Source: an uncultured Clostridiaceae bacterium (GTDB taxonomy: Bacteria > Bacillota > Clostridia > Monoglobales > Firm-18). Taken from it: a DNA stretch of 60,894 nucleotides. Position 1 is the first letter of the stretch. The number at the start of each line of letters is the position of its first letter. The notes beneath the pieces were generated by a model. It searched no databases and was not told the DNA's origin. It worked only from the letters and a program-made list of their open reading frames with translations. The position numbers were made by a program, and so were the translations under genes. Positions 3,227-46,549 of this stretch are shown here, one piece after another. The DNA is taken from positions 1 to 60,894 of the forward strand of contig CAZNKU010000004.1 of the NCBI GenBank assembly GCA_964573775.1, in the 5' to 3' direction.

Positions 3227-3303
<77 letters not shown>

Positions 3304-8214: not shown

Positions 8215-8320
8215 TCCGAAACGCAGAGTAAGGATATGTGCGTATAGTGTCAACAGACGGGGAGTTGCTGTTGAACGAATACTTTTTGTAGCGATACATA
8301 TTCTGCATCCCGCTGCCTTA
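8215..8320 (+). promoter_or_regulatory. THF (tetrahydrofolate) riboswitch
   Basis: GCAGAGTAAGGATATGTGCGTATAGTG...GGGGAGTTG...ACGAA...GCG...CTGCATCCCGCTGC matches the conserved AGAGUAG / GCGU.AGUG / GGGA.GU.G / ACGAA / UGCAUCCGCU blocks of the THF-I aptamer (recalled from the E. siraeum structure construct). It lies directly upstream of a folate ECF S-component. Confidence 0.8.
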
Positions 8321-8385
8321 TACGAGGATTATCTTCTTAAAATTAATCTCCGTAAATGTGCAGATTTATTTTAAGGAGGTTTTTT

Positions 8386-8955
8386 ATGTCAAAAAATAAA
8401 AATTCACAAAAATTCTGGAGTTTAAAAAGGATATTTTATTTTCCAGAACTAACGACAAATACGGTTTGTTCGTTAGGACTACTGATTGCAATTACCGTTG
8501 TTTTATCAATAATTTCAGGACATCTTAGGATAGGAAACATAAGCAAACTTTCAATAAGCTTTGTATCGGTATTTATTGCCGCCTATGCTTTTGGAGGAAT
8601 TACAGGTGGTTTGGTAGGTGCTTTAGCAGATTTAATATCATGCTTTGTTAACCCTGTAGGTCCGCTGATGATACAAATTACGCTAATTGAATTTGTTTTC
8701 GGATTTATATATGGTTTATTTTTTTATAAGACCTGCAAAAAAAATTATGTCGCACTTGTTTTGATTTGCGATACAATACAGTTTATTACAAATATTTTCC
8801 TAAAGACTGCTGTTCTTTCAGCAGCATACGGTACAGCATTAAATGTATTTCTTATATCGAGATTACCTATGTGCATAATACAAATGGTAATTATATTTAC
8901 AGTAATAATATTGATTAAACCCCTTTTAAAAATAATAAATAAAATATCTAATTAG
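8386..8955 (+). CDS. folT: folate-family ECF transporter S component
   Basis: ORF 8356..8955. AAGGAGG at 8373-8379 favours the ATG at 8386 (MSKNKNSQKFWSLKR...). Multi-TM protein with the THF riboswitch upstream. Confidence 0.8.
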   Translation: MSKNKNSQKFWSLKRIFYFPELTTNTVCSLGLLIAITVVLSIISGHLRIGNISKLSISFVSVFIAAYAFGGITGGLVGALADLISCFVNPVGPLMIQITLIEFVFGFIYGLFFYKTCKKNYVALVLICDTIQFITNIFLKTAVLSAAYGTALNVFLISRLPMCIIQMVIIFTVIILIKPLLKIINKISN

Positions 8956-18250: not shown

Positions 18251-19093
18251 TTATATGCTTCTGAAACCTCGTCCTATTATTTCACTGCTTGTAGTAATAA
18301 TTGTAAAAGCATGTGGGTCAATATCACGTATTTTACGCTGAAGTGTTATTGCTTCGATTCGCTTACAAACTGTATGCAACATAAATCTTTCTTCCCCTGT
18401 AAATTCTCCTGTAGCAACATTGACGGTTACACCGTGATGAAGTGTTTGAATAATAAACTTTGATATTTCATCACGTTTTGATGTAATAACTATAAAGTAT
18501 TTACAGCTGTTAAGGTTGTCAATTACGCCATCAACAATAAAGGCTTTTGCAAACAAACCAAGTAATGAGAACAATCCTGTTTTGATATCAAATACAAAAA
18601 ATGCACTTGTTGCAATTATAAAGTCTGTACAAAGTAAAGCCTTACCAACATCAAGACTTGAATATTTTTTAAGAATAAGCGCAACAATGTCCGTCCCCCC
18701 CGATGATGCCTGACAATAAAAGATAATAGCAGAACCTATTGCAGTCAGCATCATTGCATATACAAGTTCCAAAAACGGTTGGTCCGAAAGTGGTGAATCT
18801 AGCGGAATAAAAACTTCAAACAAATATGTAAGTGCAGAATACATCATACTGCAATACACTGTTTTTATACCAGTATCCTTTCCAAGAATAATAAATCCTA
18901 AAACAAGTAATGCGATATTCAAAATCCATATCCATGCACCCGGACTTATAGGTGTAAACTGTGCAAGAATTGTACCTATGCCTGTAACACCACCCGTCGA
19001 AAAACCATTAGGTATTTTAAAGAAATATATACCCAATGCCATAAGAACAATACCTATATTCATTAATAAAAAACTTTTTATTTTTTTACTCAT
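18251..19093 (-). CDS. YitT family membrane protein (DUF2179 C-terminal domain)
   Basis: ORF 18251..19117. Likely start is ATG at 19091-19093 (MSKKIKSFLLMNIGIVLMALGIYFFKIPNGFSTGGVTGI). Confidence 0.8.
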   Translation of the reverse strand: MSKKIKSFLLMNIGIVLMALGIYFFKIPNGFSTGGVTGIGTILAQFTPISPGAWIWILNIALLVLGFIILGKDTGIKTVYCSMMYSALTYLFEVFIPLDSPLSDQPFLELVYAMMLTAIGSAIIFYCQASSGGTDIVALILKKYSSLDVGKALLCTDFIIATSAFFVFDIKTGLFSLLGLFAKAFIVDGVIDNLNSCKYFIVITSKRDEISKFIIQTLHHGVTVNVATGEFTGEERFMLHTVCKRIEAITLQRKIRDIDPHAFTIITTSSEIIGRGFRSI

Positions 19094-19154
19094 AAAAACA
19101 CCCCTAATATTCAACAACAGTTTGAATTATAGCACAAAGATTTTACTTTGTAAA

Positions 19155-19187
19155 TATAAAAAAACAAGATTCTTTTAAATCTTGTTT
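19155..19187 (-). terminator. intrinsic terminator ending the Zn-ribbon/vWA/PP2C/kinase operon
   Basis: Stem AAACAAGATT / AATCTTGTTT (19162-19171 / 19178-19187). A T7 run follows on the minus strand. Confidence 0.8.
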
Positions 19188-19194
19188 TTAATAA

Positions 19195-20265
19195 TTATAA
19201 GTCACCGCCTGAAGCAAACCAATCATTATTGGCTACAACACCAGGTGTCGGAGCAACATTTGCAGGACTGGACACAGGTGCAGAAATTTCAGCACCAGCT
19301 ACTGACTTTTCATTCTGTTTCATATTAATTATAAGTCGTAAACCACCGGCTGCCACAGGAACATGATCAGGATTATTGACAGGAGGCACAGTAATTTCTG
19401 TATCACCTGAGAGCTTCTTTATTTCCTTTAAAACTTCGTCTGCAGACGGTCTTTTGTCAGGATCTGCATTTATCATTTTTAAAATCATTTCGCTTATTTC
19501 TGTTGGCATCGATGCTGAATCAATGGAAATTCCACCACCATCTAAAACTGCCTCAAAAGGATATTCATATTCATTTCTATCAAAATTCGGCAAATGTCCT
19601 GAAAAATATTCATGCAAAACAAGCCCGAGTGAATATATATCTGCCTTTTCACCAATTTTAACATCATCACCTCTGATGGCAAGAAAGGTTTCCGGAGCAA
19701 GATATGTAAGGTCACCACCAAGTTCTACATCATCACGGATTTCATTTTGTGAAAATCCTGCATCAAAGTCTATTATCTTACCAACATATCTTCCTGACAT
19801 TGTCTTTTTAACAAGAATGTTGGAAGGCTTCACATCAAAATGAACTATACCCCATCTGTGAAGGCAACAAAAAGCATACACAATAGATTTTGCCAACAAA
19901 AGCTTATCTTCTTCCGATAAAGAAGCAATCTGTTCCATAGTTACTGATTCACCTGCTACCTTTTCGTTTATAAGATAATATTTGCTTCCACATCTGAAGA
20001 ATTCTTCTATGCGAACAAGATTACCGCAACTTGCATTGTTAATTGCCGAATAAAGGTTTATGTATCTGTTCTCAAAATTTTTACAAAAATTACGTTTACT
20101 GGCAAAAAGTTCATCAGACATTACACCTTTATCAACAGGATATACAGGAGTAATCAATTCCTTTATGAAATATTCCTTTCCACCCTTAACGGCAAATCCC
20201 CATTTTGAAAAACCGCTGTTTTCGTTATTAAGTTCACCTTTTAAAGTATAACCGTTAATATTCAT
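19195..20265 (-). CDS. Ser/Thr protein kinase (Hanks-type, divergent motifs) with a Pro/Ala/Val-rich C-terminal tail
   Basis: ORF 356 aa. Beta3 lysine in KEYFIKEL, catalytic loop HFDVKPSNILV, DFD in place of DFG, and LAPE. GGTGA RBS 7 nt upstream. Confidence 0.9.
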   Translation of the reverse strand: MNINGYTLKGELNNENSGFSKWGFAVKGGKEYFIKELITPVYPVDKGVMSDELFASKRNFCKNFENRYINLYSAINNASCGNLVRIEEFFRCGSKYYLINEKVAGESVTMEQIASLSEEDKLLLAKSIVYAFCCLHRWGIVHFDVKPSNILVKKTMSGRYVGKIIDFDAGFSQNEIRDDVELGGDLTYLAPETFLAIRGDDVKIGEKADIYSLGLVLHEYFSGHLPNFDRNEYEYPFEAVLDGGGISIDSASMPTEISEMILKMINADPDKRPSADEVLKEIKKLSGDTEITVPPVNNPDHVPVAAGGLRLIINMKQNEKSVAGAEISAPVSSPANVAPTPGVVANNDWFASGGDL

Positions 20266-20312
20266 TTATTTATCACCATTTAATATTATTTATGTCAATT
20301 AAAAAGATATAT

Positions 20313-21248
20313 CTAAATGGAATAATATCCATTTTTATACATCTCCCACTTTACAGAAGAATCTTTATCAGAAAAAACAAAAGTGTTATATACATACTTG
20401 TTACGCATATCAAATGCAGCCTGAATATTACGGAAAGAACCGTAACCAAATATTGCAACACTCATCGTATAATCATCACCGGCAAAGTTTCCGATATTTT
20501 CATAAATAGCATTTTTCCATTCAGCAATACTACGTGAGTGCATAAGAAGATTAGTCAACAAATATTCAAACTCCATAGGAGTACCCATATAACCAAAACA
20601 CCCATCCGTTGCCGTAAAAAGAATACAAGGCAAATCTAACACAAATTCCTTTTTATGAATCTTAAAAGGAACGCTTGCACTTATGAAGTTGGTAAGTACA
20701 CCGTCATTCGAAAGATTACTCATAGCATCTTCACCGCTGACATCATCATCACTTAATTGATGTAAGCCTGTTGCATTAAGTGCATAACATCTAGAATCAC
20801 CCGCCCATAAACAAGTTACTCTTATTTTTTTGCCTTCCTCAGCAACTTTGATTATTGCGGCAGTTGTAGGAAATGATTTACCAAGACTGCCTATAAAACG
20901 GCTTTCTTCTTTATCGGCATATGCTTCACAGATATTTAAAGTTTGTTTAATATACCCCATAAGGTTATCTGTATTTTCATCCTCGGAATCAAACCACGCC
21001 TTTACCCCGCCACATACTGCACGGGACGCAACATAAGCACCAGTTTTTCCGGAATAATTGTTGTATCTTTTTGAACCAATACCACCGCATCCGTCAAAAA
21101 CAGAAACAATAGCACTGTTTTTTCTTACACTGTAATAAAAACTGTCTTCACCATTTTCGGGTTTTACTTCTCTTTCTACACAGAAAATTGTATCTAATTT
21201 TTCAAAGCCGTTTTTTGAACTATGTTTGTTATTCTTAATTCTACTCAT
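20313..21248 (-). CDS. PP2C-family protein Ser/Thr phosphatase
   Basis: ORF 311 aa. PP2C motifs NGEDSF, VFDGCGGIGS...AYVASRAV, PTTAA, WAGDSRCYAL, ATDGCFGY and GDDYTMSV. Confidence 0.88.
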   Translation of the reverse strand: MSRIKNNKHSSKNGFEKLDTIFCVEREVKPENGEDSFYYSVRKNSAIVSVFDGCGGIGSKRYNNYSGKTGAYVASRAVCGGVKAWFDSEDENTDNLMGYIKQTLNICEAYADKEESRFIGSLGKSFPTTAAIIKVAEEGKKIRVTCLWAGDSRCYALNATGLHQLSDDDVSGEDAMSNLSNDGVLTNFISASVPFKIHKKEFVLDLPCILFTATDGCFGYMGTPMEFEYLLTNLLMHSRSIAEWKNAIYENIGNFAGDDYTMSVAIFGYGSFRNIQAAFDMRNKYVYNTFVFSDKDSSVKWEMYKNGYYSI

Positions 21249-21262
21249 AACACCATATCTGT

Positions 21263-21952
21263 TTAGCCAATTGTATTAGCTATTACATCTATAATCTGAT
21301 TGTATTCAAGTTCTTTAAGACCGTTACCTGCTTGTGAAGGAAAGTGAAGTACGTTATCCCAGTTTCTTGAAACAATATTCCAATCCGGTGCATCCGGTGC
21401 ATACAAAACAAGACGTTTTGCATTGTTATCCATAAAGCCTGTATACTGACCCGCGCCCCACCATGCTGATAGTTCATTAAGGTCTCTTGACATACCCTTT
21501 GGATAATATTCACTTGAACTGCCAAAGCCAAGTTTGTGTGTTGATTCATCTGTCCACACAACAATAACCTGACGTTTTTTCATGCCTTCTGTATCCCACT
21601 TTGATTTAATAGCATAAGCCAAAGCTTCCAAACCGTCTTCAGGATCATCGCCGCCACCATCTGCTTTAAGACTGCGAACACACTTTTCAAAATCCACTGC
21701 CTGCTCGGGAAGCTTGAAGAAATCGGTAACAAGCATTGCATCTTTACCGTCTGCAAGATAATCACGGAAAGCTACAACACGAACTCTTAGCTGATCAATG
21801 TGTTTACTTTTAACTTCCATTGCTTGAGTAACATCCTGATAAAAGTTAAGTGCATTATTTTTTACGATATCAATAATATTATCCATACTACCGGTACAGT
21901 CAATACAGAATACCATATCTACATTGTAAGTTAATTTGAAATTTGAAGCCAT
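21263..21952 (-). CDS. von Willebrand factor type A (vWA, TerY-like) domain protein
   Basis: ORF 21263..21967 (GTG). The ATG at 21950-21952 (MASNFKLTY) has the better RBS (GGGGAAGGA). MIDAS-type DCTGSM ... VVWTDEST. Confidence 0.85.
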   Translation of the reverse strand: MASNFKLTYNVDMVFCIDCTGSMDNIIDIVKNNALNFYQDVTQAMEVKSKHIDQLRVRVVAFRDYLADGKDAMLVTDFFKLPEQAVDFEKCVRSLKADGGGDDPEDGLEALAYAIKSKWDTEGMKKRQVIVVWTDESTHKLGFGSSSEYYPKGMSRDLNELSAWWGAGQYTGFMDNNAKRLVLYAPDAPDWNIVSRNWDNVLHFPSQAGNGLKELEYNQIIDVIANTIG

Positions 21953-21985
21953 ATTTCCTTCCCCCACATATTTTTAAATTTATTA

Positions 21986-22453
21986 TTAATTAAAAATTGA
22001 TTCGATATTTTCTATAACCTCTGAAAAAATATAACCTGCCGAACCTTTATTTTCTTCAAAATCACTTCGTTTCATTGTATCAACAGCAGAATCAACTGAA
22101 GATTTACCTCCAAATTCACCGCTGTTTTCTGTAGCTTTATTTTTGCTACAGGAAGCACAAATTGTAAATATTAAACAAACAAGTATAATTAAACTGAAAG
22201 ACCATGAAATAATAGAAAGAATTTTAAATTTTCTTTGTGTTTGAATTGCTACGTTGAGCTTTTTTTCAAGATTTTGAACGATTTTTTCATTCACACCATT
22301 ACTTACGGACGTATTAACAACTGTAGTTGGACCTTCATAGCTAAGTATATCTCCGAATCCACCACACATTTCAGTATCCGGCATATTTGCACCGCACCTG
22401 GGACAGGCGGCAGAGTTTTTAGGATTATTACTTCCACATTTCTCACAAATCAT
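21986..22453 (-). CDS. zinc-ribbon protein with a single TM helix
   Basis: ORF 21986..22462. AAGGAG RBS favours the ATG at 22451-22453 (MICEKCGSNNPKNSAACPRCG, i.e. CxxC-x10-CxxC). One TM helix (ILSIISWSFSLIILVCLIFTICA) and a short Ser/Glu-rich C-terminal region. Confidence 0.75.
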   Translation of the reverse strand: MICEKCGSNNPKNSAACPRCGANMPDTEMCGGFGDILSYEGPTTVVNTSVSNGVNEKIVQNLEKKLNVAIQTQRKFKILSIISWSFSLIILVCLIFTICASCSKNKATENSGEFGGKSSVDSAVDTMKRSDFEENKGSAGYIFSEVIENIESIFN

Positions 22454-22471
22454 AATACGCACTCCTTAAAA

Positions 22472-22504
22472 GCGAATCGTCAATTTCAAAAAATGACAAT
22501 TCGC
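22472..22504 (-). promoter_or_regulatory. 11-bp inverted repeat (operator or 5' leader hairpin) between the promoter and RBS of the Zn-ribbon/vWA/PP2C/kinase operon
   Basis: GCGAATCGTCA (22472-22482) / TGACAATTCGC (22494-22504), one mismatch. On the transcript it is followed by UUUUAAGGAG. Confidence 0.5.
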
Positions 22505-22516
22505 TAACATAGTGAC

Positions 22517-22545
22517 ATTATATAACAAAATATTACAAATGTCAA
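22517..22545 (-). promoter_or_regulatory. exact consensus sigma-A promoter of the Zn-ribbon/vWA/PP2C/kinase operon
   Basis: On the minus strand: TTGACA (22540-22545), 17 nt, TATAAT (22517-22522). Confidence 0.7.
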
Positions 22546-23544: not shown

Positions 23545-23582
23545 GATAACAAAAAATCCCACAAGCTCAATTTGTGGGATTT
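23545..23582 (-). terminator. intrinsic terminator overlapping the stop codon of the PG-binding gene
   Basis: Stem AAATCCCACAA / TTGTGGGATTT. A T-run follows on the minus strand. Confidence 0.75.
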
Positions 23583-24097
23583 GTTTTTTTTGCTATACTT
23601 GATGTATACAGATTTGCAATGCTGTTATAGGTAAGAGTGTCTATTACACCTGTAGGTTCTAATCCTGTTAATGTTTGTACAAACAAAACTGCATTAACGG
23701 AATTTTCATCGTGAATACCTGTTATGTCTACATTTGGTGCATTTGGATAAACAAGAAAAATTGCATATAACATTGCCTGAATTACATAAAGTTCCGAGCG
23801 TTCATCGCCCTCATTAATAAGTATTCTTTTGCCGAAAACCGGAAAAGCAATCGGTAATACATATATTCTGTTAAGCTCCATATTGACATCACGTATTTTT
23901 TGCCATGTTATGTTGTCAACCTCGCCGGTAGGTTCTAATCCATAAGCTTTTTGAAAAGATATAACGCTGTCTTTAGTATTTTGAGTAAAGTTTCCGTCCG
24001 GAATAACAGGTAACACATCCTCTACATAATACGAAATATTTCTCAGCATACTTTGCAAGCCTCGCACAGGCTTTGCATCGGTATTTTCCACTATCAT
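23567..24097 (-). CDS. peptidoglycan-binding (PG_binding_1 repeat) protein
   Basis: ORF 176 aa. Two repeats of the ...FQ...GL.PTG..D..T... type (SFQKAYGLEPTGEVDNITW; VQTLTGLEPTGVIDTLTY). AGAGGTGA RBS overlaps the upstream stop codon. Confidence 0.75.
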   Translation of the reverse strand: MIVENTDAKPVRGLQSMLRNISYYVEDVLPVIPDGNFTQNTKDSVISFQKAYGLEPTGEVDNITWQKIRDVNMELNRIYVLPIAFPVFGKRILINEGDERSELYVIQAMLYAIFLVYPNAPNVDITGIHDENSVNAVLFVQTLTGLEPTGVIDTLTYNSIANLYTSSIAKKTNPTN

Positions 24098-24108
24098 ACA
24101 ATCACCTC

Positions 24109-25530
24109 TTAAAAATCAGAATCACCCTGCCGTAATGTACTGCCGGGAAACTGCATACTTTCTGTTTGCTGTGAAGATATTACATTTTTATACTCATTGG
24201 CTATTGCATTCCATGTTGATTCGTTTACATTTCCAGTACGTATAAGTCCATTTTCACCCTGTATTTGCATAACTGCACTTCGTGTTGCCCTGCCGTACAC
24301 ACCTGTTACACTGACTGGCATAATATTACTATTCACGGTAGCAATAGTATTTATATATTCCTGCAAGGTACGTATACTATCACCTGTTGAACCAATCTGA
24401 AGTACTGTCCCCGGAAACGGTATGGTTTCAATATTTAATTCACGGCTATCGAAAAGTACAATATCATAAGAATTTTTAAGAACACGATACATTAAATCCC
24501 ACGTTTCTGCATCAGTAATACCGGTTACAGGCAAACCGTAAATTGCCTGAAAACTTTCCACTGCCGCAGCAGTATTTGCCCCATATATTCCGTCTCGCGT
24601 AACAGTGGGAATTCGATTATCAAACTGTGCAAGTGTTGCAAGCATATACTGAAGTGCCGCAACCTTTTCACCTCTGTCGCCAATTTCCAATCCGTTAGGA
24701 TATTGAAGGTCTATACCAACAAATGTCTGACCTTCTGAATACAGTTCGGAAAGCCGAAGTAAACCAACATACAGATATACCATTTCATACCATGTTGCTC
24801 TTCCTACTATTCCGTCAGCAGTAAGGTTGAAAATCTCCTGAAACTTTTTAACAGCAGCCTCTGTATTTTCTCCAAATATGGCATCTATAGGTCTTACTTT
24901 TGGTATAGCAGGATAGTCATTTGAAATTCTGTTTAACATCACCTGAATTATCTGCACATACACACCGGAATCACCCCTGCGTATCGGGTAGCCCGGATAA
25001 GATTCATTAATGCCTCGTATAGGAGCATTTGTGACAATTTCAATATCATCTCCGTAGTAATTACGGAGTATCTGTACATAGTCAAGTCCATCCCGTGCAA
25101 GATATTCACTGCCCCATTGAGAAAGCCCCTGACAAGTTACCGTAGTACCGTTGCAATACTTTGCTGCAAGCGGTTCTACACGTCCCATAATACGCAAATA
25201 CGAATCAAATATTTCATCAACAATATCCGATATATTTGAAAAAATATTTCTTCCCTGAGTGTACTTCTGGTCATATGCTGTGTTATTTGTTATGTCAAAA
25301 TTGTAGCCCTGAGAACGGTAAAATTCTGTATAAACTCTGTTTAATGCATAAGATATCTGTGCAAGTATGTTGGCATAAAGTGCATCTTCATCCCAAGTGG
25401 GATATATTTCACTTGAAGCAACGTTTTTTATGTAATCTCTGAATGATACGGTTACATTTTCCGCCACCTGTGACGGTGCCCCTAAATGTACCGTTATTTC
25501 CTCGGGTATGTAAGGTATAACAGTTGGCAT
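24109..25530 (-). CDS. SleC-like spore cortex-lytic enzyme core with three PG-binding repeats
   Basis: ORF 473 aa. YIKNVASSEIYPTWDEDALYANILAQISYALNRVYTEFYRSQGYNFDITNNTAYDQKY resembles the catalytic region of clostridial SleC as I recall it. Followed by three PG_binding_1-like repeats. Confidence 0.65.
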   Translation of the reverse strand: MPTVIPYIPEEITVHLGAPSQVAENVTVSFRDYIKNVASSEIYPTWDEDALYANILAQISYALNRVYTEFYRSQGYNFDITNNTAYDQKYTQGRNIFSNISDIVDEIFDSYLRIMGRVEPLAAKYCNGTTVTCQGLSQWGSEYLARDGLDYVQILRNYYGDDIEIVTNAPIRGINESYPGYPIRRGDSGVYVQIIQVMLNRISNDYPAIPKVRPIDAIFGENTEAAVKKFQEIFNLTADGIVGRATWYEMVYLYVGLLRLSELYSEGQTFVGIDLQYPNGLEIGDRGEKVAALQYMLATLAQFDNRIPTVTRDGIYGANTAAAVESFQAIYGLPVTGITDAETWDLMYRVLKNSYDIVLFDSRELNIETIPFPGTVLQIGSTGDSIRTLQEYINTIATVNSNIMPVSVTGVYGRATRSAVMQIQGENGLIRTGNVNESTWNAIANEYKNVISSQQTESMQFPGSTLRQGDSDF

Positions 25531-44318: not shown

Positions 44319-44371
44319 AGTCTATGAAGAAATGAAATACGATATAAATTATGAGGAAAGGAGATTTTATT

Positions 44372-46549
44372 ATGAAGATTATCAAGCGAAGCGGTGCGGA
44401 AGTTGTTTTTGACCCGGAAAAAATTATTATTGCTATTTCCAAGGCTAATGACAGTGTTGTTCCAAGTGCAAGAATGACACCTATACAGATTAAAAGAATT
44501 GCCGAAGACGTTGAAAGTGCAGCTCTTAACATAAACCGTTCACTAAGCGTGGAAGAAATTCAGGATATGGTGGAAGACCAGATTATGAACCAGCGTGCTT
44601 TTGAAGTGGCAAGACGTTATATTACATACCGTTATACACGTGCATTGGTTCGTAAATCAAACACTACAGATGAACAGATTTTAAGTCTTATTGAATGCAA
44701 CAACGAAGAGGTTAAACAGGAAAACTCCAACAAAAACCCTACTGTTAACAGCGTTCAGCGTGACTATATGGCAGGTGAGGTAAGTAAGGATATTACAAAA
44801 CGTATTCTTCTTCCGACCGACATTGTTGCTGCACATGAACAGGGTATTATCCACTTCCACGATGCAGACTACTTTGCACAGCATATGCACAACTGTGACC
44901 TTGTAAACCTTGAGGATATGTTGCAGAACGGTACTGTTATAAGCGGTACTATGATTGAAAAGCCACACAGCTTTTCAACAGCTTGTAACATTTCAACACA
45001 GATTATTGCACAGGTTGCCTCCTGTCAGTACGGCGGTCAGAGCATAAGTCTTACACATCTTGCTCCATTTGTTGACGTAAGCCGTCAAAAGATTAAAAAG
45101 CAGGTTATTGAAGAATTTAAATCAATAAATCAGGATGCTACTGAAGAACAGATTAACGAAATTACCGAAAAGAGACTTCGTGACGAAGTTAAAAGCGGTG
45201 TACAGATGATACAGTATCAGGTTGTTACACTTATGACAACTAACGGACAGGCTCCTTTTGTAACTGTATTTATGTACCTTAATGAAGCTAAAAACGAGCA
45301 GGAAAAGAAAGACCTTGCTTTGGTTATTGAAGAAACATTGAAACAGCGTTATCAGGGTGTTAAAAACGAAAAGGGTGTATGGATTACTCCTGCATTCCCT
45401 AAGCTTATTTACGTTTTGGAAGAAGACAACATTCACAAGGACAGCAAATATTACTACCTTACAGAATTGGCGGCAAAATGTACTGCTAAACGTATGGTAC
45501 CCGACTATATTTCAGAAAAGGTAATGCTTCAGAACAAAATTGACAAAAACGGTGAAGGTCATTGCTACACTTGTATGGGTTGCAGAAGCTTCCTTACTCC
45601 TTTTGTTGATGAAAACGGCAAGCCTAAATATTACGGCAGATTTAACCAGGGCGTTGTAACCGTAAACCTTGTTGATATTGGTCTTTCCGCTAACAAGGAT
45701 ATGGACAAATTCTGGGAAATATTTGACGAACGTATGGACCTTTGTCACAGAGCATTACAGTGCAGACACGAAAGGCTTACAGGCACACTATCAGATGCCG
45801 CGCCTATTTTGTGGCAACACGGTGCACTTTTAAGACTTGGAAAAGGTGAAAGCATTGACAAGTATCTGCACGGTGGATATTCTACACTTTCACTTGGTTA
45901 TGCAGGTCTTTGGGAATGTGTGTATAGTCTTATCGGCAAAAAGCTTACAGAGACTGAGGGTGAAGAATTAGGCCTTGAAATTATGCGCAAACTTAACGAA
46001 TATACTGCTAAGTGGAAGGCTGAAGAAAACATAGACTATTCACTTTACGGTACACCTTTGGAAAGCACAACATACAAATTTGCCAAGAATTTACAGAGCA
46101 GATTTGGTATTATAAAGGGTGTTACAGACAAAAACTACATTACAAACAGTTATCATGTTCATGTAACAGAAAACATTGATGCTTTCGACAAGCTTGCTTT
46201 GGAATCCAAATTCCAGGCTCTTTCACCGGGTGGTGCTATTTCTTACGTAGAAGTTCCTAATATGCAAAATAATCTTGAAGCTGTTCTATCAGTAATGAGA
46301 TTTATTTACGACAACATTATGTATGCGGAGCTTAACACAAAGAGTGACTACTGTCAGGAATGCGGCTTTGACGGTGAAATAGAAGTTAAGGAAGACGCAG
46401 ACGGCAAGCTTATCTGGACATGCCCTAACTGTGGCAACAATGACCAGACAAAGCTTAACGTTGCAAGAAGAACCTGCGGTTACATCGGTACACAGTTTTG
46501 GAATCAGGGAAGAACACAGGAAATTAAAGAACGAGTTCTTCACTTATAA
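44372..46549 (+). CDS. nrdD: anaerobic ribonucleoside-triphosphate reductase (class III)
   Basis: ORF 44351..46549. GGAAAGGAG RBS then ATG at 44372. ATP-cone N-terminus (MKIIKRSGAEVVFDPEKI), Zn site CQECGF...CPNCGN, glycyl-radical motif RRTCGYIG. Confidence 0.95.
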   Translation: MKIIKRSGAEVVFDPEKIIIAISKANDSVVPSARMTPIQIKRIAEDVESAALNINRSLSVEEIQDMVEDQIMNQRAFEVARRYITYRYTRALVRKSNTTDEQILSLIECNNEEVKQENSNKNPTVNSVQRDYMAGEVSKDITKRILLPTDIVAAHEQGIIHFHDADYFAQHMHNCDLVNLEDMLQNGTVISGTMIEKPHSFSTACNISTQIIAQVASCQYGGQSISLTHLAPFVDVSRQKIKKQVIEEFKSINQDATEEQINEITEKRLRDEVKSGVQMIQYQVVTLMTTNGQAPFVTVFMYLNEAKNEQEKKDLALVIEETLKQRYQGVKNEKGVWITPAFPKLIYVLEEDNIHKDSKYYYLTELAAKCTAKRMVPDYISEKVMLQNKIDKNGEGHCYTCMGCRSFLTPFVDENGKPKYYGRFNQGVVTVNLVDIGLSANKDMDKFWEIFDERMDLCHRALQCRHERLTGTLSDAAPILWQHGALLRLGKGESIDKYLHGGYSTLSLGYAGLWECVYSLIGKKLTETEGEELGLEIMRKLNEYTAKWKAEENIDYSLYGTPLESTTYKFAKNLQSRFGIIKGVTDKNYITNSYHVHVTENIDAFDKLALESKFQALSPGGAISYVEVPNMQNNLEAVLSVMRFIYDNIMYAELNTKSDYCQECGFDGEIEVKEDADGKLIWTCPNCGNNDQTKLNVARRTCGYIGTQFWNQGRTQEIKERVLHL

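Follow-up and report, generated by a model that had tools for sequence, protein, structure and literature searches.

An integrin beta-like vWA protein as a possible docking hub in a vWA-PP2C-kinase cassette with membrane zinc-ribbon proteins from Clostridia

Gene triads that encode a vWA (von Willebrand factor A) protein, a PP2C-type phosphatase and a Ser/Thr kinase are widespread, and one form of them has been reported to be anti-phage. What does the vWA protein do in such a triad, what triggers the system and how is it assembled? These questions are raised by a four-gene operon in 60,894 nucleotides of DNA from an uncultured Clostridiaceae bacterium (contig CAZNKU010000004.1, positions 1 to 60,894; this whole stretch is called the window). 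The operon encodes a membrane-anchored zinc-ribbon protein, a vWA protein, a PP2C phosphatase and a Hanks-type kinase, and its family is present in at least 196 species of Clostridia. The cassette may be a membrane-tethered Ser/Thr phospho-signalling module in which the vWA protein would serve as a Mg2+-dependent docking hub for C-terminal tails, a proposal that we hold at just short of even confidence. A narrower version is put forward more tentatively. It has a cytoplasmic vWA domain of the integrin beta type reading an AGDL-COOH terminus through the metal of its MIDAS (metal-ion-dependent adhesion site), with the tail as a plug-in address label that would wire the cassette proteins to one hub.

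The open reading frame (ORF) list and a reading of the DNA place four co-directional genes on the minus strand, running from 22453 to 19195:

Positions 21986-22453, minus strand: gene 1, membrane-anchored zinc-ribbon protein, 155 amino acids from the ATG (ORF, ribosome-binding site and ATG).
Positions 21263-21952, minus strand: gene 2, stand-alone vWA protein, 229 amino acids (Pfam, PDB sequence search and Foldseek).
Positions 20313-21248, minus strand: gene 3, divergent PP2C-type Ser/Thr phosphatase, 311 amino acids, predicted to be cytoplasmic (PP2C_2 at 3.1e-7, above the cut-off).
Positions 19195-20265, minus strand: gene 4, Hanks-type Ser/Thr kinase (Pkinase at 1.1e-27), with the kinase domain (residues 1-290) at 19396-20265.

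An initial annotation of this DNA had named the vWA, PP2C and kinase domains, and all three are above their Pfam cut-offs. Relatives of the cassette were sought in contigs from one genome per species. This survey gave 196 confirmed matches, and 80 loci were fetched. In nearly all of them the vWA gene is found together with the PP2C and kinase genes, in one of two orders. The order of the window is zinc ribbon-transmembrane (TM) gene, vWA, PP2C, zero to three extra genes and kinase. In the other order PP2C, kinase and vWA are followed by a gene for a small zinc-ribbon protein. Since the cluster recurs across the 80 fetched loci, the arrangement is not due to chance.

What kind of vWA protein does the cassette encode? 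By sequence and by modelled fold, gene 2 appears to be closest to the I domain of integrin beta subunits, and the elements on which the alignment centres are the following:

Positions 21887-21901, minus strand: MIDAS motif D18-C-T20-G-S22, which aligns with integrin beta D-x-S-x-S.
Positions 21623-21658, minus strand: loop G99-G-G-D-D-P-E-D-G-L-E-A110, the counterpart of the integrin beta metal-binding loop S-G-N-x-D-x-P-E-G-G-F-D-A.
Positions 21548-21556, minus strand: W133-T-D135 with the last MIDAS Asp, which aligns with the integrin "MTD".

Pfam matches gene 2 to VWA_4 (4.9e-9), with VWA_2 and VWA also above their cut-offs and a weak match to Integrin_beta (2e-4). The D-x-T-x-S form of the MIDAS, which the initial annotation had named, is kept in nearly all fetched loci with minor variants at the third or fourth position (T to M, G to A or R). 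WTD or WSD stands in nearly all loci as well, and GGGD[DE]PEDGLEA is near-invariant across them. In the hidden Markov model alignment the loop from G99 to A110 aligns to SGNIDTPEGGFDA of integrin beta-8. In integrin beta the D-x-P-E-x-G-x-[DE]-A loop provides the Glu that the MIDAS has in common with the adjacent metal site. When the family profile was compared with all PDB sequences, the only significant matches were to integrin beta-8 (E about 1e-3), in an alignment that spans YNVDMVFCIDCTGSM / YPVDLYYLVDVSASM, GGGDDPEDGLEAL / SGNIDTPEGGFDAM and VVWTD..TH / LVMTD..SH (cassette vWA / integrin beta-8). Integrin beta-6 was weak in the same search, with E about 0.4. Foldseek gave a similar result for about 350,000 PDB chains, the best 40 being all integrin beta and ahead of every other vWA structure (E 4e-8 to 2e-6, TM-score about 0.5-0.6).

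Sequence, Pfam and model give no sign of a signal peptide, a TM segment or a further domain in gene 2. Because the protein lacks a signal peptide and TM segment and opens directly with its first beta-strand, it is predicted to be cytoplasmic. It is not an integrin, since it has neither a hybrid domain nor an alpha-subunit partner. Integrins are extracellular, transmembrane receptors whose beta I domain sits within a hybrid domain and pairs with the beta-propeller of an alpha subunit. A literature search on prokaryotic integrin-beta-like vWA domains found nothing relevant. Elsewhere the vWA family occurs in fusions with a retropepsin-like aspartyl protease, SMEK_N, Sel1 repeats, or a TM segment plus a CarboxypepD_reg-like domain (P0152, P0168, P0247 and P0222/P0240; 39-47% identity), and in P0123, P0129 and P0229 it is present in two to seven tandem copies.

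What might such a metal site bind inside a bacterial cell? A candidate ligand is carried by the kinase of the same operon, at the end of a long tether:

Positions 19222-19395, minus strand: C-terminal disordered linker of the kinase (residues 291-348), rich in Pro, Ser, Thr, Ala and Val (AlphaFold2 model).
Positions 19198-19221, minus strand: kinase tail W349-F-A-S-G-G-D355-L356-COOH (conservation among homologues).

The kinase of the window ends in ...NNDWFASGGDL-COOH, and the family consensus is [WF]-F-x-x-A-G-D-L-COOH. Among 120 kinase homologues from the database (47-87% identical), 107 end in xGDL-COOH and 7 have close variants. L356 is invariant, and W349, F350, G354 and D355 are conserved to 90% or more; the preceding 50-150 residues cannot be aligned, the linker being variable in both length and sequence among relatives. 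Pfam finds no domain C-terminal of the kinase domain, and residues 300-356 are disordered in the AlphaFold2 model, where the pLDDT (predicted local distance difference test) value falls below 50 at residues 300-309 and 317-348. The last block, at pLDDT 53, is not docked on its own kinase domain. The disorder of the linker and the undocked end suggest that the tail is a short linear motif for which the linker serves as tether. A literature search found no description of the AGDL tail.

The tail is also found on cassette proteins other than the kinase, which end for example in ...HERFKQAGDL, ...HSRFTQAGDL, ...GDWFKSAGDL or ...QEWFSDAGDL. Of the non-kinase ORFs that end in GD[LIMVF], 25 of 26 are on the cassette strand and lie from -0.8 to +4.2 kb of the vWA gene. 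For a fixed cassette zone the count is 25 carriers among 641 ORFs inside it and 1 among 1918 outside (Fisher p = 1e-14). At least one non-kinase tail protein is present in 20 of 81 loci, and the larger cassettes have one to three further zinc-ribbon/TM proteins with the tail. The carriers are zinc-ribbon proteins, multi-TM proteins and small soluble ribbon proteins, and their only common feature is the neighbouring triad. No ORF of the 60-kb window other than the kinase has the tail.

CaMK-like kinases, which are the best structural matches of this kinase, commonly have autoinhibitory segments at the C-terminus, and the tail could be regarded as a pseudosubstrate or docking segment that inhibits its own kinase domain in cis. 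However, the AlphaFold2 monomer leaves the tail undocked beside a domain with a pLDDT of about 90, the same tail ends at least 25 proteins that are not kinases, and in natural fusion proteins a vWA domain is found instead of it. Autoinhibition in cis is therefore very improbable.

Which protein would the tail dock to? The vWA protein is the only member of the cassette with a known Asp-binding site, and that site is beta-I-like, from which we infer that the vWA protein is a metal-dependent hub for the AGDL tails. In a crystal structure of integrin alphaIIb-beta3 the penultimate Asp of fibrinogen ...AGDV-COOH binds the Mg2+ of the MIDAS, and the terminal carboxylate reaches the adjacent metal site (ADMIDAS) through water (PMC2518716). 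AGDV peptides bind the integrin beta subunit alone (PMC4813479). The MIDAS metal of the cassette vWA may bind the penultimate Asp of AGDL-COOH in the same way as the integrin beta3 I domain binds fibrinogen. Kinase-linker-vWA fusions (P0167 and P0173), in which the vWA domain stands at the place of the tail after a long disordered linker, fit this docking model. In the larger cassettes several receptor-like proteins with tails would compete or cooperate for one hub.

Several observations weigh against this proposal. The AlphaFold2 model of the vWA protein, on which the fold comparison was based, was made from a shallow alignment and has a modest pLDDT of 64. The acidic pair of the ADMIDAS is not conserved; S22 is followed by M-D-N in the window and by D/G/E/S and then N/D/R/P in relatives, so that the integrin analogy may fail for the terminal carboxylate. 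The zinc-ribbon protein of the window has no tail, and its link to the hub consists of gene adjacency and motif resemblance. Tails also vary among clades. Distant clades have the variant tails AGDDDLL, AGEDDL and PGDL. In one sub-clade (L051, L053, L055, L059 and L062) the kinase has 288 amino acids and lacks an acidic tail, PP2C is missing, and the TM protein encoded upstream has no ribbon. In another (L073, L081, L083-L085 and L088) the end of the kinase is NGLSRFM[KR]K, which is basic and looks amphipathic. Both sub-clades keep the vWA MIDAS intact. Loss of the MIDAS in tail-less clades was looked for as a test of co-variation, and the MIDAS proved to be invariant everywhere, which is mildly against the tail as sole ligand and indicates that the MIDAS must have another in those clades. 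Residue 103 of the vWA loop (after GGGD) does follow the tail class, being D or E in 36 of 41 A/G-G-D-L loci and I or L in all 5 P-G-D-L loci and all 6 NGLSRFM loci, but this co-variation is confounded by phylogeny.

Could the tail have a different partner? It may dock to the PP2C, to the zinc ribbons, or to a host protease, chaperone or TPR-type carboxylate clamp, in which case the MIDAS would bind another ligand, such as a phosphorylated residue or, in gene 1, the GGF[GA]DIL motif. The clades just described are in line with this, as they keep the MIDAS without acidic tails and often lack PP2C or a typical zinc-ribbon gene (the loci with the 288-amino-acid kinase have neither), and TPR proteins are present in some cassettes (L026). 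The lack of conserved ADMIDAS-like residues points the same way. However, none of the other cassette members has a known site for a peptide Asp, whereas the vWA protein is similar to the integrin beta I domain, to which AGDV-COOH binds. In addition, the kinase-vWA fusions exchange the tail for a vWA domain, and the tail is found on many architectures with the triad as sole common neighbour. A different partner is considered unlikely, and docking to the vWA protein is the preferred explanation of the tail.

How would a soluble kinase be brought to the membrane? If the tail docks to the vWA protein, docking would recruit the kinase to the membrane-anchored zinc-ribbon proteins, which may serve as anchors or sensors. 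In gene 1 an N-terminal ribbon is followed by the conserved motif GGF[GA]DIL and then by a single TM helix, and the C-terminal portion is short and variable:

Positions 22394-22447, minus strand: zinc ribbon C3-x2-C6-x10-C17-x2-C20 (residues 3-20; direct reading of the sequence).
Positions 22337-22363, minus strand: post-ribbon motif G-G-F-G-D-I-L-S-Y (residues 31-39; alignment).
Positions 22148-22225, minus strand: predicted TM helix, about residues 77-102 (hydropathy scan).

This agrees with the initial annotation, in which gene 1 has a CxxC-x10-CxxC ribbon followed by one TM helix. The ribbon is below the Pfam cut-offs (Zn_Ribbon_1/DZR, 3.6e-4); in the family alignment its four Cys residues (C3, C6, C17 and C20) are invariant among 18 relatives, and G32, F33, D35 and I36 are invariant too. 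Basic RKFK before the TM helix suggests, by the positive-inside rule, that the N-terminus is cytoplasmic. GGFGDILSY is a possible second Asp-containing docking motif, and the vWA protein may bind its Asp as an internal ligand of a kind similar to the tail.

Genes of this type are a regular and fast-evolving component of the cassette family. Zinc ribbon plus TM is found in 128 of 260 cassette-adjacent same-strand ORFs and, elsewhere, in 29 of 580 ORFs of the same loci, an 18-fold enrichment (odds ratio 18, p = 4e-49), and 60 of 81 loci have at least one such gene. The ribbon type of the window, M[IFL]C.KCG..N...C..CG..MP...CGGF[AGS]DIL[ST][FY], was found 26 times inside cassettes and never outside. 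A metagenome scan with the ribbon alignment matched at least 4 loci over the full 40 residues including GGFxDIL, and in 4 of the 4 full-length matches listed vWA, PP2C and kinase genes lie directly downstream of the ribbon. Among the listed loci that matched only the generic ribbon part, 0 of 28 have the triad downstream. Co-occurrence of the ribbon gene with the triad is thus found from both sides. A second cassette-specific class, W-x-C-x2-C-x3-N-x(4-8)-C-x2-C, which we take to be the RanBP2 zinc-finger consensus, occurs 53 times inside cassettes (42 of 81) and 3 times just outside. Most of these RanBP2-like fingers have a TM helix fused to them, and some have TPR repeats (for example L001:6692-7225, L026:10738-12027, L034:10847-, L060:6- and L089:4508-), and they are not present in the cassette of the window. 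The relatives have two to five ribbon genes, and some of their ribbon proteins have two TM helices flanking an extracytoplasmic segment plus a cytoplasmic double ribbon. The initial annotation had regarded the zinc-ribbon protein as something that this copy adds to the triad. The protein is instead a family-wide component, and the window, with one ribbon gene, holds the minimal version.

A chance or artefactual origin of the operon and of the tail was also considered, and it was ruled out by the recurrence of the cluster and by the counts of ribbon-TM genes and tails. A 732-amino-acid ORF at 44351-46549 on the plus strand has, at its C-terminus (residue 668), the one further C-x2-C...C-x2-C ribbon pattern of the window.

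Are the two enzymes likely to be active? In the alignments both keep all catalytic residues. In the PP2C the metal-binding D52, D151, D215, D258 and D259 are invariant in 72 of 72 relatives, and the Asp residues of DGxGG, GDS, TDG and GDD are all kept. In the kinase K35, D144, K146, D166 and E192 are invariant in 78 of 78 relatives, and with N149 included the catalytic-motif residues are kept in 72-78 of the 78. The Asp of the DFG type, D166, stands in D-F-D. The full PP2C motif set and the kinase motifs (the Lys, HFDVKPSN, DFD and APE) had both been read correctly in the initial annotation. AlphaFold2 gives residues 1-290 of the kinase a pLDDT of about 90, and the Foldseek matches are canonical protein kinases. 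The invariant catalytic residues and the kept metal-site motifs of the vWA protein point to selection for function in both enzymes and in the metal site. In the proposed mechanism the kinase would be the output and the vWA protein the conserved adaptor. Autophosphorylation of the kinase or phosphorylation of a partner would set the state, and the PP2C would reset it.

How the family is distributed and how fast its members change bear on this division of labour. The vWA protein has 1663 relatives in a protein collection clustered at 90%, the best 120 all being at least 70% identical, and an exhaustive comparison with 50% representatives gave 318 at E <= 1e-30 and 1029 at E <= 1e-10. Carriers include Oscillospiraceae, Lachnospiraceae (Blautia, Mediterraneibacter, Acetatifactor and Oribacterium), Faecalibacterium and Clostridia metagenome-assembled genomes (MAGs) from gut and rumen. 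Five MAGs are listed with two cassettes of different sub-types: JAZNLK01 (L014, L034), SVKF01 (L031, L055), CADAPG01 (L060, L067), CAZTEA01 (L051, L063) and CAMNQN01 (L054, L080). In two related genomes (L010 and L128) the cassette lies at the same site as in the window, between a RelA/SpoT-type gene and yitT. Identity to the window is there 92-96% for the RelQ-like protein, 88% for YitT and 97% for the vWA protein, and it is 80-81% for the PP2C, 79-81% for the kinase and 42-55% for the ribbon-TM protein. The DNA of the ribbon region in these genomes cannot be aligned with the window, and extra genes are present there in both. The vWA protein is thus the most conserved and the ribbon-TM protein the fastest-evolving member of the cassette. 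This gradient fits a conserved hub with variable sensors.

The site between yitT and the alarmone synthetase is not always occupied. The cassette is present there in L010 and L128, whereas two genomes with 85-89% identical YitT have other genes upstream of yitT and no cassette. Matches to the YitT probe at 72-75% identity lie in unrelated contexts and are probably paralogues or rearranged, so only the 85-89% matches are informative. In more distant carriers the surroundings of the cassette are unrelated. In the window the flanks encode YitT, EamA, an energy-coupling factor (ECF) S-component, HIT, QueH, a RelA_SpoT synthetase and peptidoglycan (PG)-binding proteins. The initial annotation had placed the operon among housekeeping genes (yitT-like and relQ-like) without a mobile-element signature, and this description stands, as a YitT-family gene and a small RelA/SpoT-type synthetase gene are there with no mobile genes. 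Among 129 flanking proteins of 70 loci there was no recurrent neighbour and no mobile-element or DNA-processing gene. These flanking proteins belong to ordinary metabolism, transport and regulation. Families linked to defence were likewise not found among them, beyond extra kinase paralogues and an aminotransferase class-V enzyme that scores with SspA/DndA models (generic).

Is the cassette then a defence system? The vWA-PP2C-kinase composition is that of the TerY-P triad, defined by Anantharaman, Iyer and Aravind in 2012 (as cited in PMC11090510 and PMC4978471), and TerY-P-like modules were reported by Gao et al. in 2020 to be stand-alone anti-phage systems (as summarized in PMC11090510). In an abortive infection of this type the membrane zinc-ribbon proteins or the vWA protein would sense infection, the released kinase would phosphorylate a broad range of host or phage proteins and growth would stop. 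The PP2C would hold the system off. The membrane components are fast-evolving and modular, some MAGs have two copies, and the relQ-yitT site is occupied in 3 related genomes and empty of the cassette in 2. The defence-kinase models mad6 and PD-T4-6 pick up the kinase, although such matches are generic for kinases. Among distant relatives of the vWA protein there are fusions with SMEK_N and with a retropepsin-like protease, domains that are used in conflict systems.

Other results argue against an anti-phage role. None of the 129 flanking genes is a defence or mobile-element gene, the cassette contains no nuclease or other effector, and its kinase lacks the OB fold or zinc ribbon of described TerY-P kinases. 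The housekeeping flanks are less conserved than the vWA protein, an unusual pattern for defence genes. A search of 2.9 million viral contigs with the patterns VFCIDCT and QVIVVWT, which are narrow and would miss VFCIDAT clades, turned up no relative, and PHROGs gave a generic kinase match only. PADLOC had no match for the vWA, PP2C or ribbon protein and only generic matches for the kinase; this silence is weak evidence, because the YegL/PphC control from E. coli was unmatched too. Abortive infection of the TerY-P type is rather doubtful on this balance, and a defence role in general is possible, at the low end, but is not suggested by the context. An anti-phage role is compatible with the docking mechanism, as it concerns the biological role. 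The membrane sensors and the housekeeping context favour an envelope-sensed signal, with phage attack as one candidate of several.

One locus, L004:1440-6528, is the only mobile-element-like context that was seen. There, phage-type genes for a major capsid protein, a terminase large subunit and a resolvase lie immediately upstream of the cassette. On its other side come an S8 peptidase that has SH3_3/Cu_amine_oxidN1 domains and a ricin-lectin protein.

Is the operon of the window a unit of its own? The initial annotation had described a self-contained operon of a zinc-ribbon/TM, a vWA, a PP2C and a Hanks kinase gene, which the ORFs, the transcription signals and Pfam bear out. The signals are as follows:

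Positions 22517-22545, minus strand: sigma-70-type promoter TTGACA-17-TATAAT, a 12/12 match about 55 nucleotides upstream of the start codon of the zinc-ribbon gene.
Positions 19153-19189, minus strand: intrinsic terminator, a 13-bp A/U-rich hairpin followed by U7 (folding).
Positions 19126-19154, minus strand: promoter-like site, 11/12, with an extended -10 TG, directly past the cassette terminator.

The gaps between the genes are 33 nucleotides (18 if gene 2 starts at its GTG), 14 nucleotides and 47 nucleotides, as had been given. The likely start of gene 1 is the ATG at 22453, 8 nucleotides past AAGGAG, the mechanical ORF start being the GTG at 22462. For gene 2 it is the ATG at 21952, after the G-rich Shine-Dalgarno sequence GGGGGAAGG, with the GTG at 21967 as an alternative. 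The exact consensus promoter named in the initial annotation is the only perfect (12/12) site within 18.5-23.5 kb, while promoter-like sites across the region are at the level of chance (25 observed, 24 expected from shuffles). The terminator had been called strong. The hairpin with its U7 is real, at -11.5 kcal/mol and z = -5.4 with none of 200 shuffles equally stable, but "strong" is generous wording. A consensus scan skipped it because its stem has fewer than three G-C pairs. The site at 19126-19154 presumably serves the yitT-family gene at 18251-19117. A perfect promoter, a hairpin with U7 and a separate promoter for the next gene make the four genes resemble an insulated transcription unit. 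Rfam found no RNA element inside the operon.

Some further features of the window were noted. Upstream of the operon, just beyond the RelA/SpoT-type gene, two adjacent genes with multiple PG_binding_1 repeats lie at 23567-25530 on the minus strand, one of them with a SpoIID-like N-terminal region. A full-length tetrahydrofolate (THF) riboswitch aptamer is at 8222-8317 on the plus strand (78.5 bits, E = 2e-16), just upstream of the ORF at 8356-8955 on the same strand. A tRNA-Met (CAT) was found by both ARAGORN and Rfam at 3227-3303 on the minus strand.

The family offers a handle on vWA-PP2C-kinase triads, in that it has an invariant metal site of the integrin beta type, a cassette-specific C-terminal peptide and natural kinase-vWA fusions. 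The binding hypothesis could be tested within days with a peptide, a few point mutants and ethylenediaminetetraacetic acid (EDTA). The family is common among Clostridia that are abundant in gut and rumen, and Ser/Thr signalling is almost unexplored in these bacteria. Carriers in culture include Blautia caecimuris DSM 29492 (L057), Faecalibacterium langellae CNCM I-4541 (L069) and Oribacterium sp. KHPX15 (L040). If the hypothesis is true, the integrin mode of ligand recognition would operate inside bacterial cells, an intracellular bacterial precedent. The cassette would be a modular receptor-adaptor-kinase system in which several sensors are wired to one kinase, and the missing role of the vWA protein in triads of this kind would be supplied generally.

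How does the cassette compare with known systems? The integrin beta I domain is the best sequence and fold match of the cassette vWA, with the MIDAS and the D-x-P-E-x-G loop aligned. The cassette tails RFKQAGDL, RFTQAGDL and WFASGGDL-COOH have a penultimate Asp after A/G-G, as does fibrinogen gamma KQAGDV-COOH. Unlike integrins, the cassette vWA is bacterial, predicted to be cytoplasmic, and without alpha-subunit, hybrid or PSI domains. Residues of the ADMIDAS type are not conserved in it, and the likeness of the ligands is a resemblance.

In the TerY-P triad, as in the cassette, genes for a vWA that stands alone, a PP2C and a Hanks kinase are adjacent and co-directional, zinc ribbons are associated with the system, and the proposed logic is that of a metal-dependent switch controlled by phosphorylation. 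The triad is often embedded in Type II/III-A CoCoNuT systems and is associated with restriction and DNA-processing genes (PMC11090510, PMC4978471). Its kinase is fused C-terminally to a zinc ribbon in the CoCoNuT form or to an OB fold in the stand-alone defence form (PMC11090510). The cassette kinase has neither, and has the disordered linker and AGDL-COOH in their place; the zinc ribbons of the cassette are on separate membrane-anchored proteins. The cassette vWA appears to be integrin-beta-like (VWA_4/Integrin_beta) rather than YegL/TerY-like, and the PP2C of the cassette is very divergent (3e-7, as against 6e-52 for PphC). No Ter, McrBC/CoCoNuT, WXG100/FtsK or nuclease genes are linked to it in the window flanks or among the 129 flanking proteins. 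The label "TerY-P-type" in the initial annotation thus holds for the three-domain composition and not for the C-terminal fusion of the kinase or the defence and DNA-processing context.

The yegL-pphC/yegK-yegI genes of E. coli K-12, which we take from the COG4245 naming to be a TerY-type triad, resemble the cassette in having a vWA, a PP2C and a kinase in one non-mobile chromosomal neighbourhood. No specific similarity of the proteins themselves was found, with an hhalign probability of 17% between the cassette vWA and YegL (the single-sequence template makes hhalign weak here) and a BLASTP E of 2 between the cassette PP2C and PphC. YegL matches Pfam VWA and VWA_2 only, whereas the cassette vWA is best matched by VWA_4 and also by Integrin_beta, which points to a different lineage from the YegL/TerY type. 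YegI, unlike the cassette kinase, is an atypical kinase of 648 amino acids below the Pkinase thresholds, and the E. coli cluster has no annotated zinc-ribbon/TM genes.

The type VI secretion threonine-phosphorylation pathway comprises PpkA (a kinase with a vWA domain), PppA and Fha1. Actinobacterial kinase (with zinc ribbon), PP2C and vWA genes are attached to GAP1-N2 GTPase conflict systems (PMC7159879), and Deinococcus radiodurans has a vWA, Ser/Thr protein kinase, FHA and PP2C operon, DRA0331-0334 (bioRxiv 10.64898/2026.01.23.701218). All of these have linked vWA, kinase and PP2C, with the vWA proposed to be a peptide-binding or scaffolding element. They differ from the cassette in their FHA domains, GTPases or secretion machinery, and none of them is described with arrays of zinc-ribbon/TM proteins or a shared AGDL tail.

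In its way of working the cassette appears to be most like the Sulfolobus module of ArnA (zinc-binding and FHA), ArnB (vWA), the kinases ArnC and ArnD, and the phosphatase PP2A (PMC6509490; PMC7472852; PMC12852372). Both have a cytoplasmic vWA, a zinc-binding partner, Hanks kinases and a Ser/Thr phosphatase, and in the Arn module phosphorylation of a C-terminal region controls how the vWA protein forms a complex with its partner (PMC6509490). In an Arn-type module the partner has an FHA domain that recognizes the vWA protein's C-terminus in its phosphorylated form. For an FHA domain there was no match in the four cassette proteins or in the listed frequent families of the 129 flanking proteins. 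ArnB has extra beta-sandwich and helical domains, the phosphatase is PP2A and not PP2C, and the Arn proteins are not membrane-anchored and have no AGDL tail described. The cassette is therefore best placed as a distinct, Clostridia-centred variant of the vWA-PP2C-kinase theme, of which the membrane zinc-ribbon proteins are an integral part.

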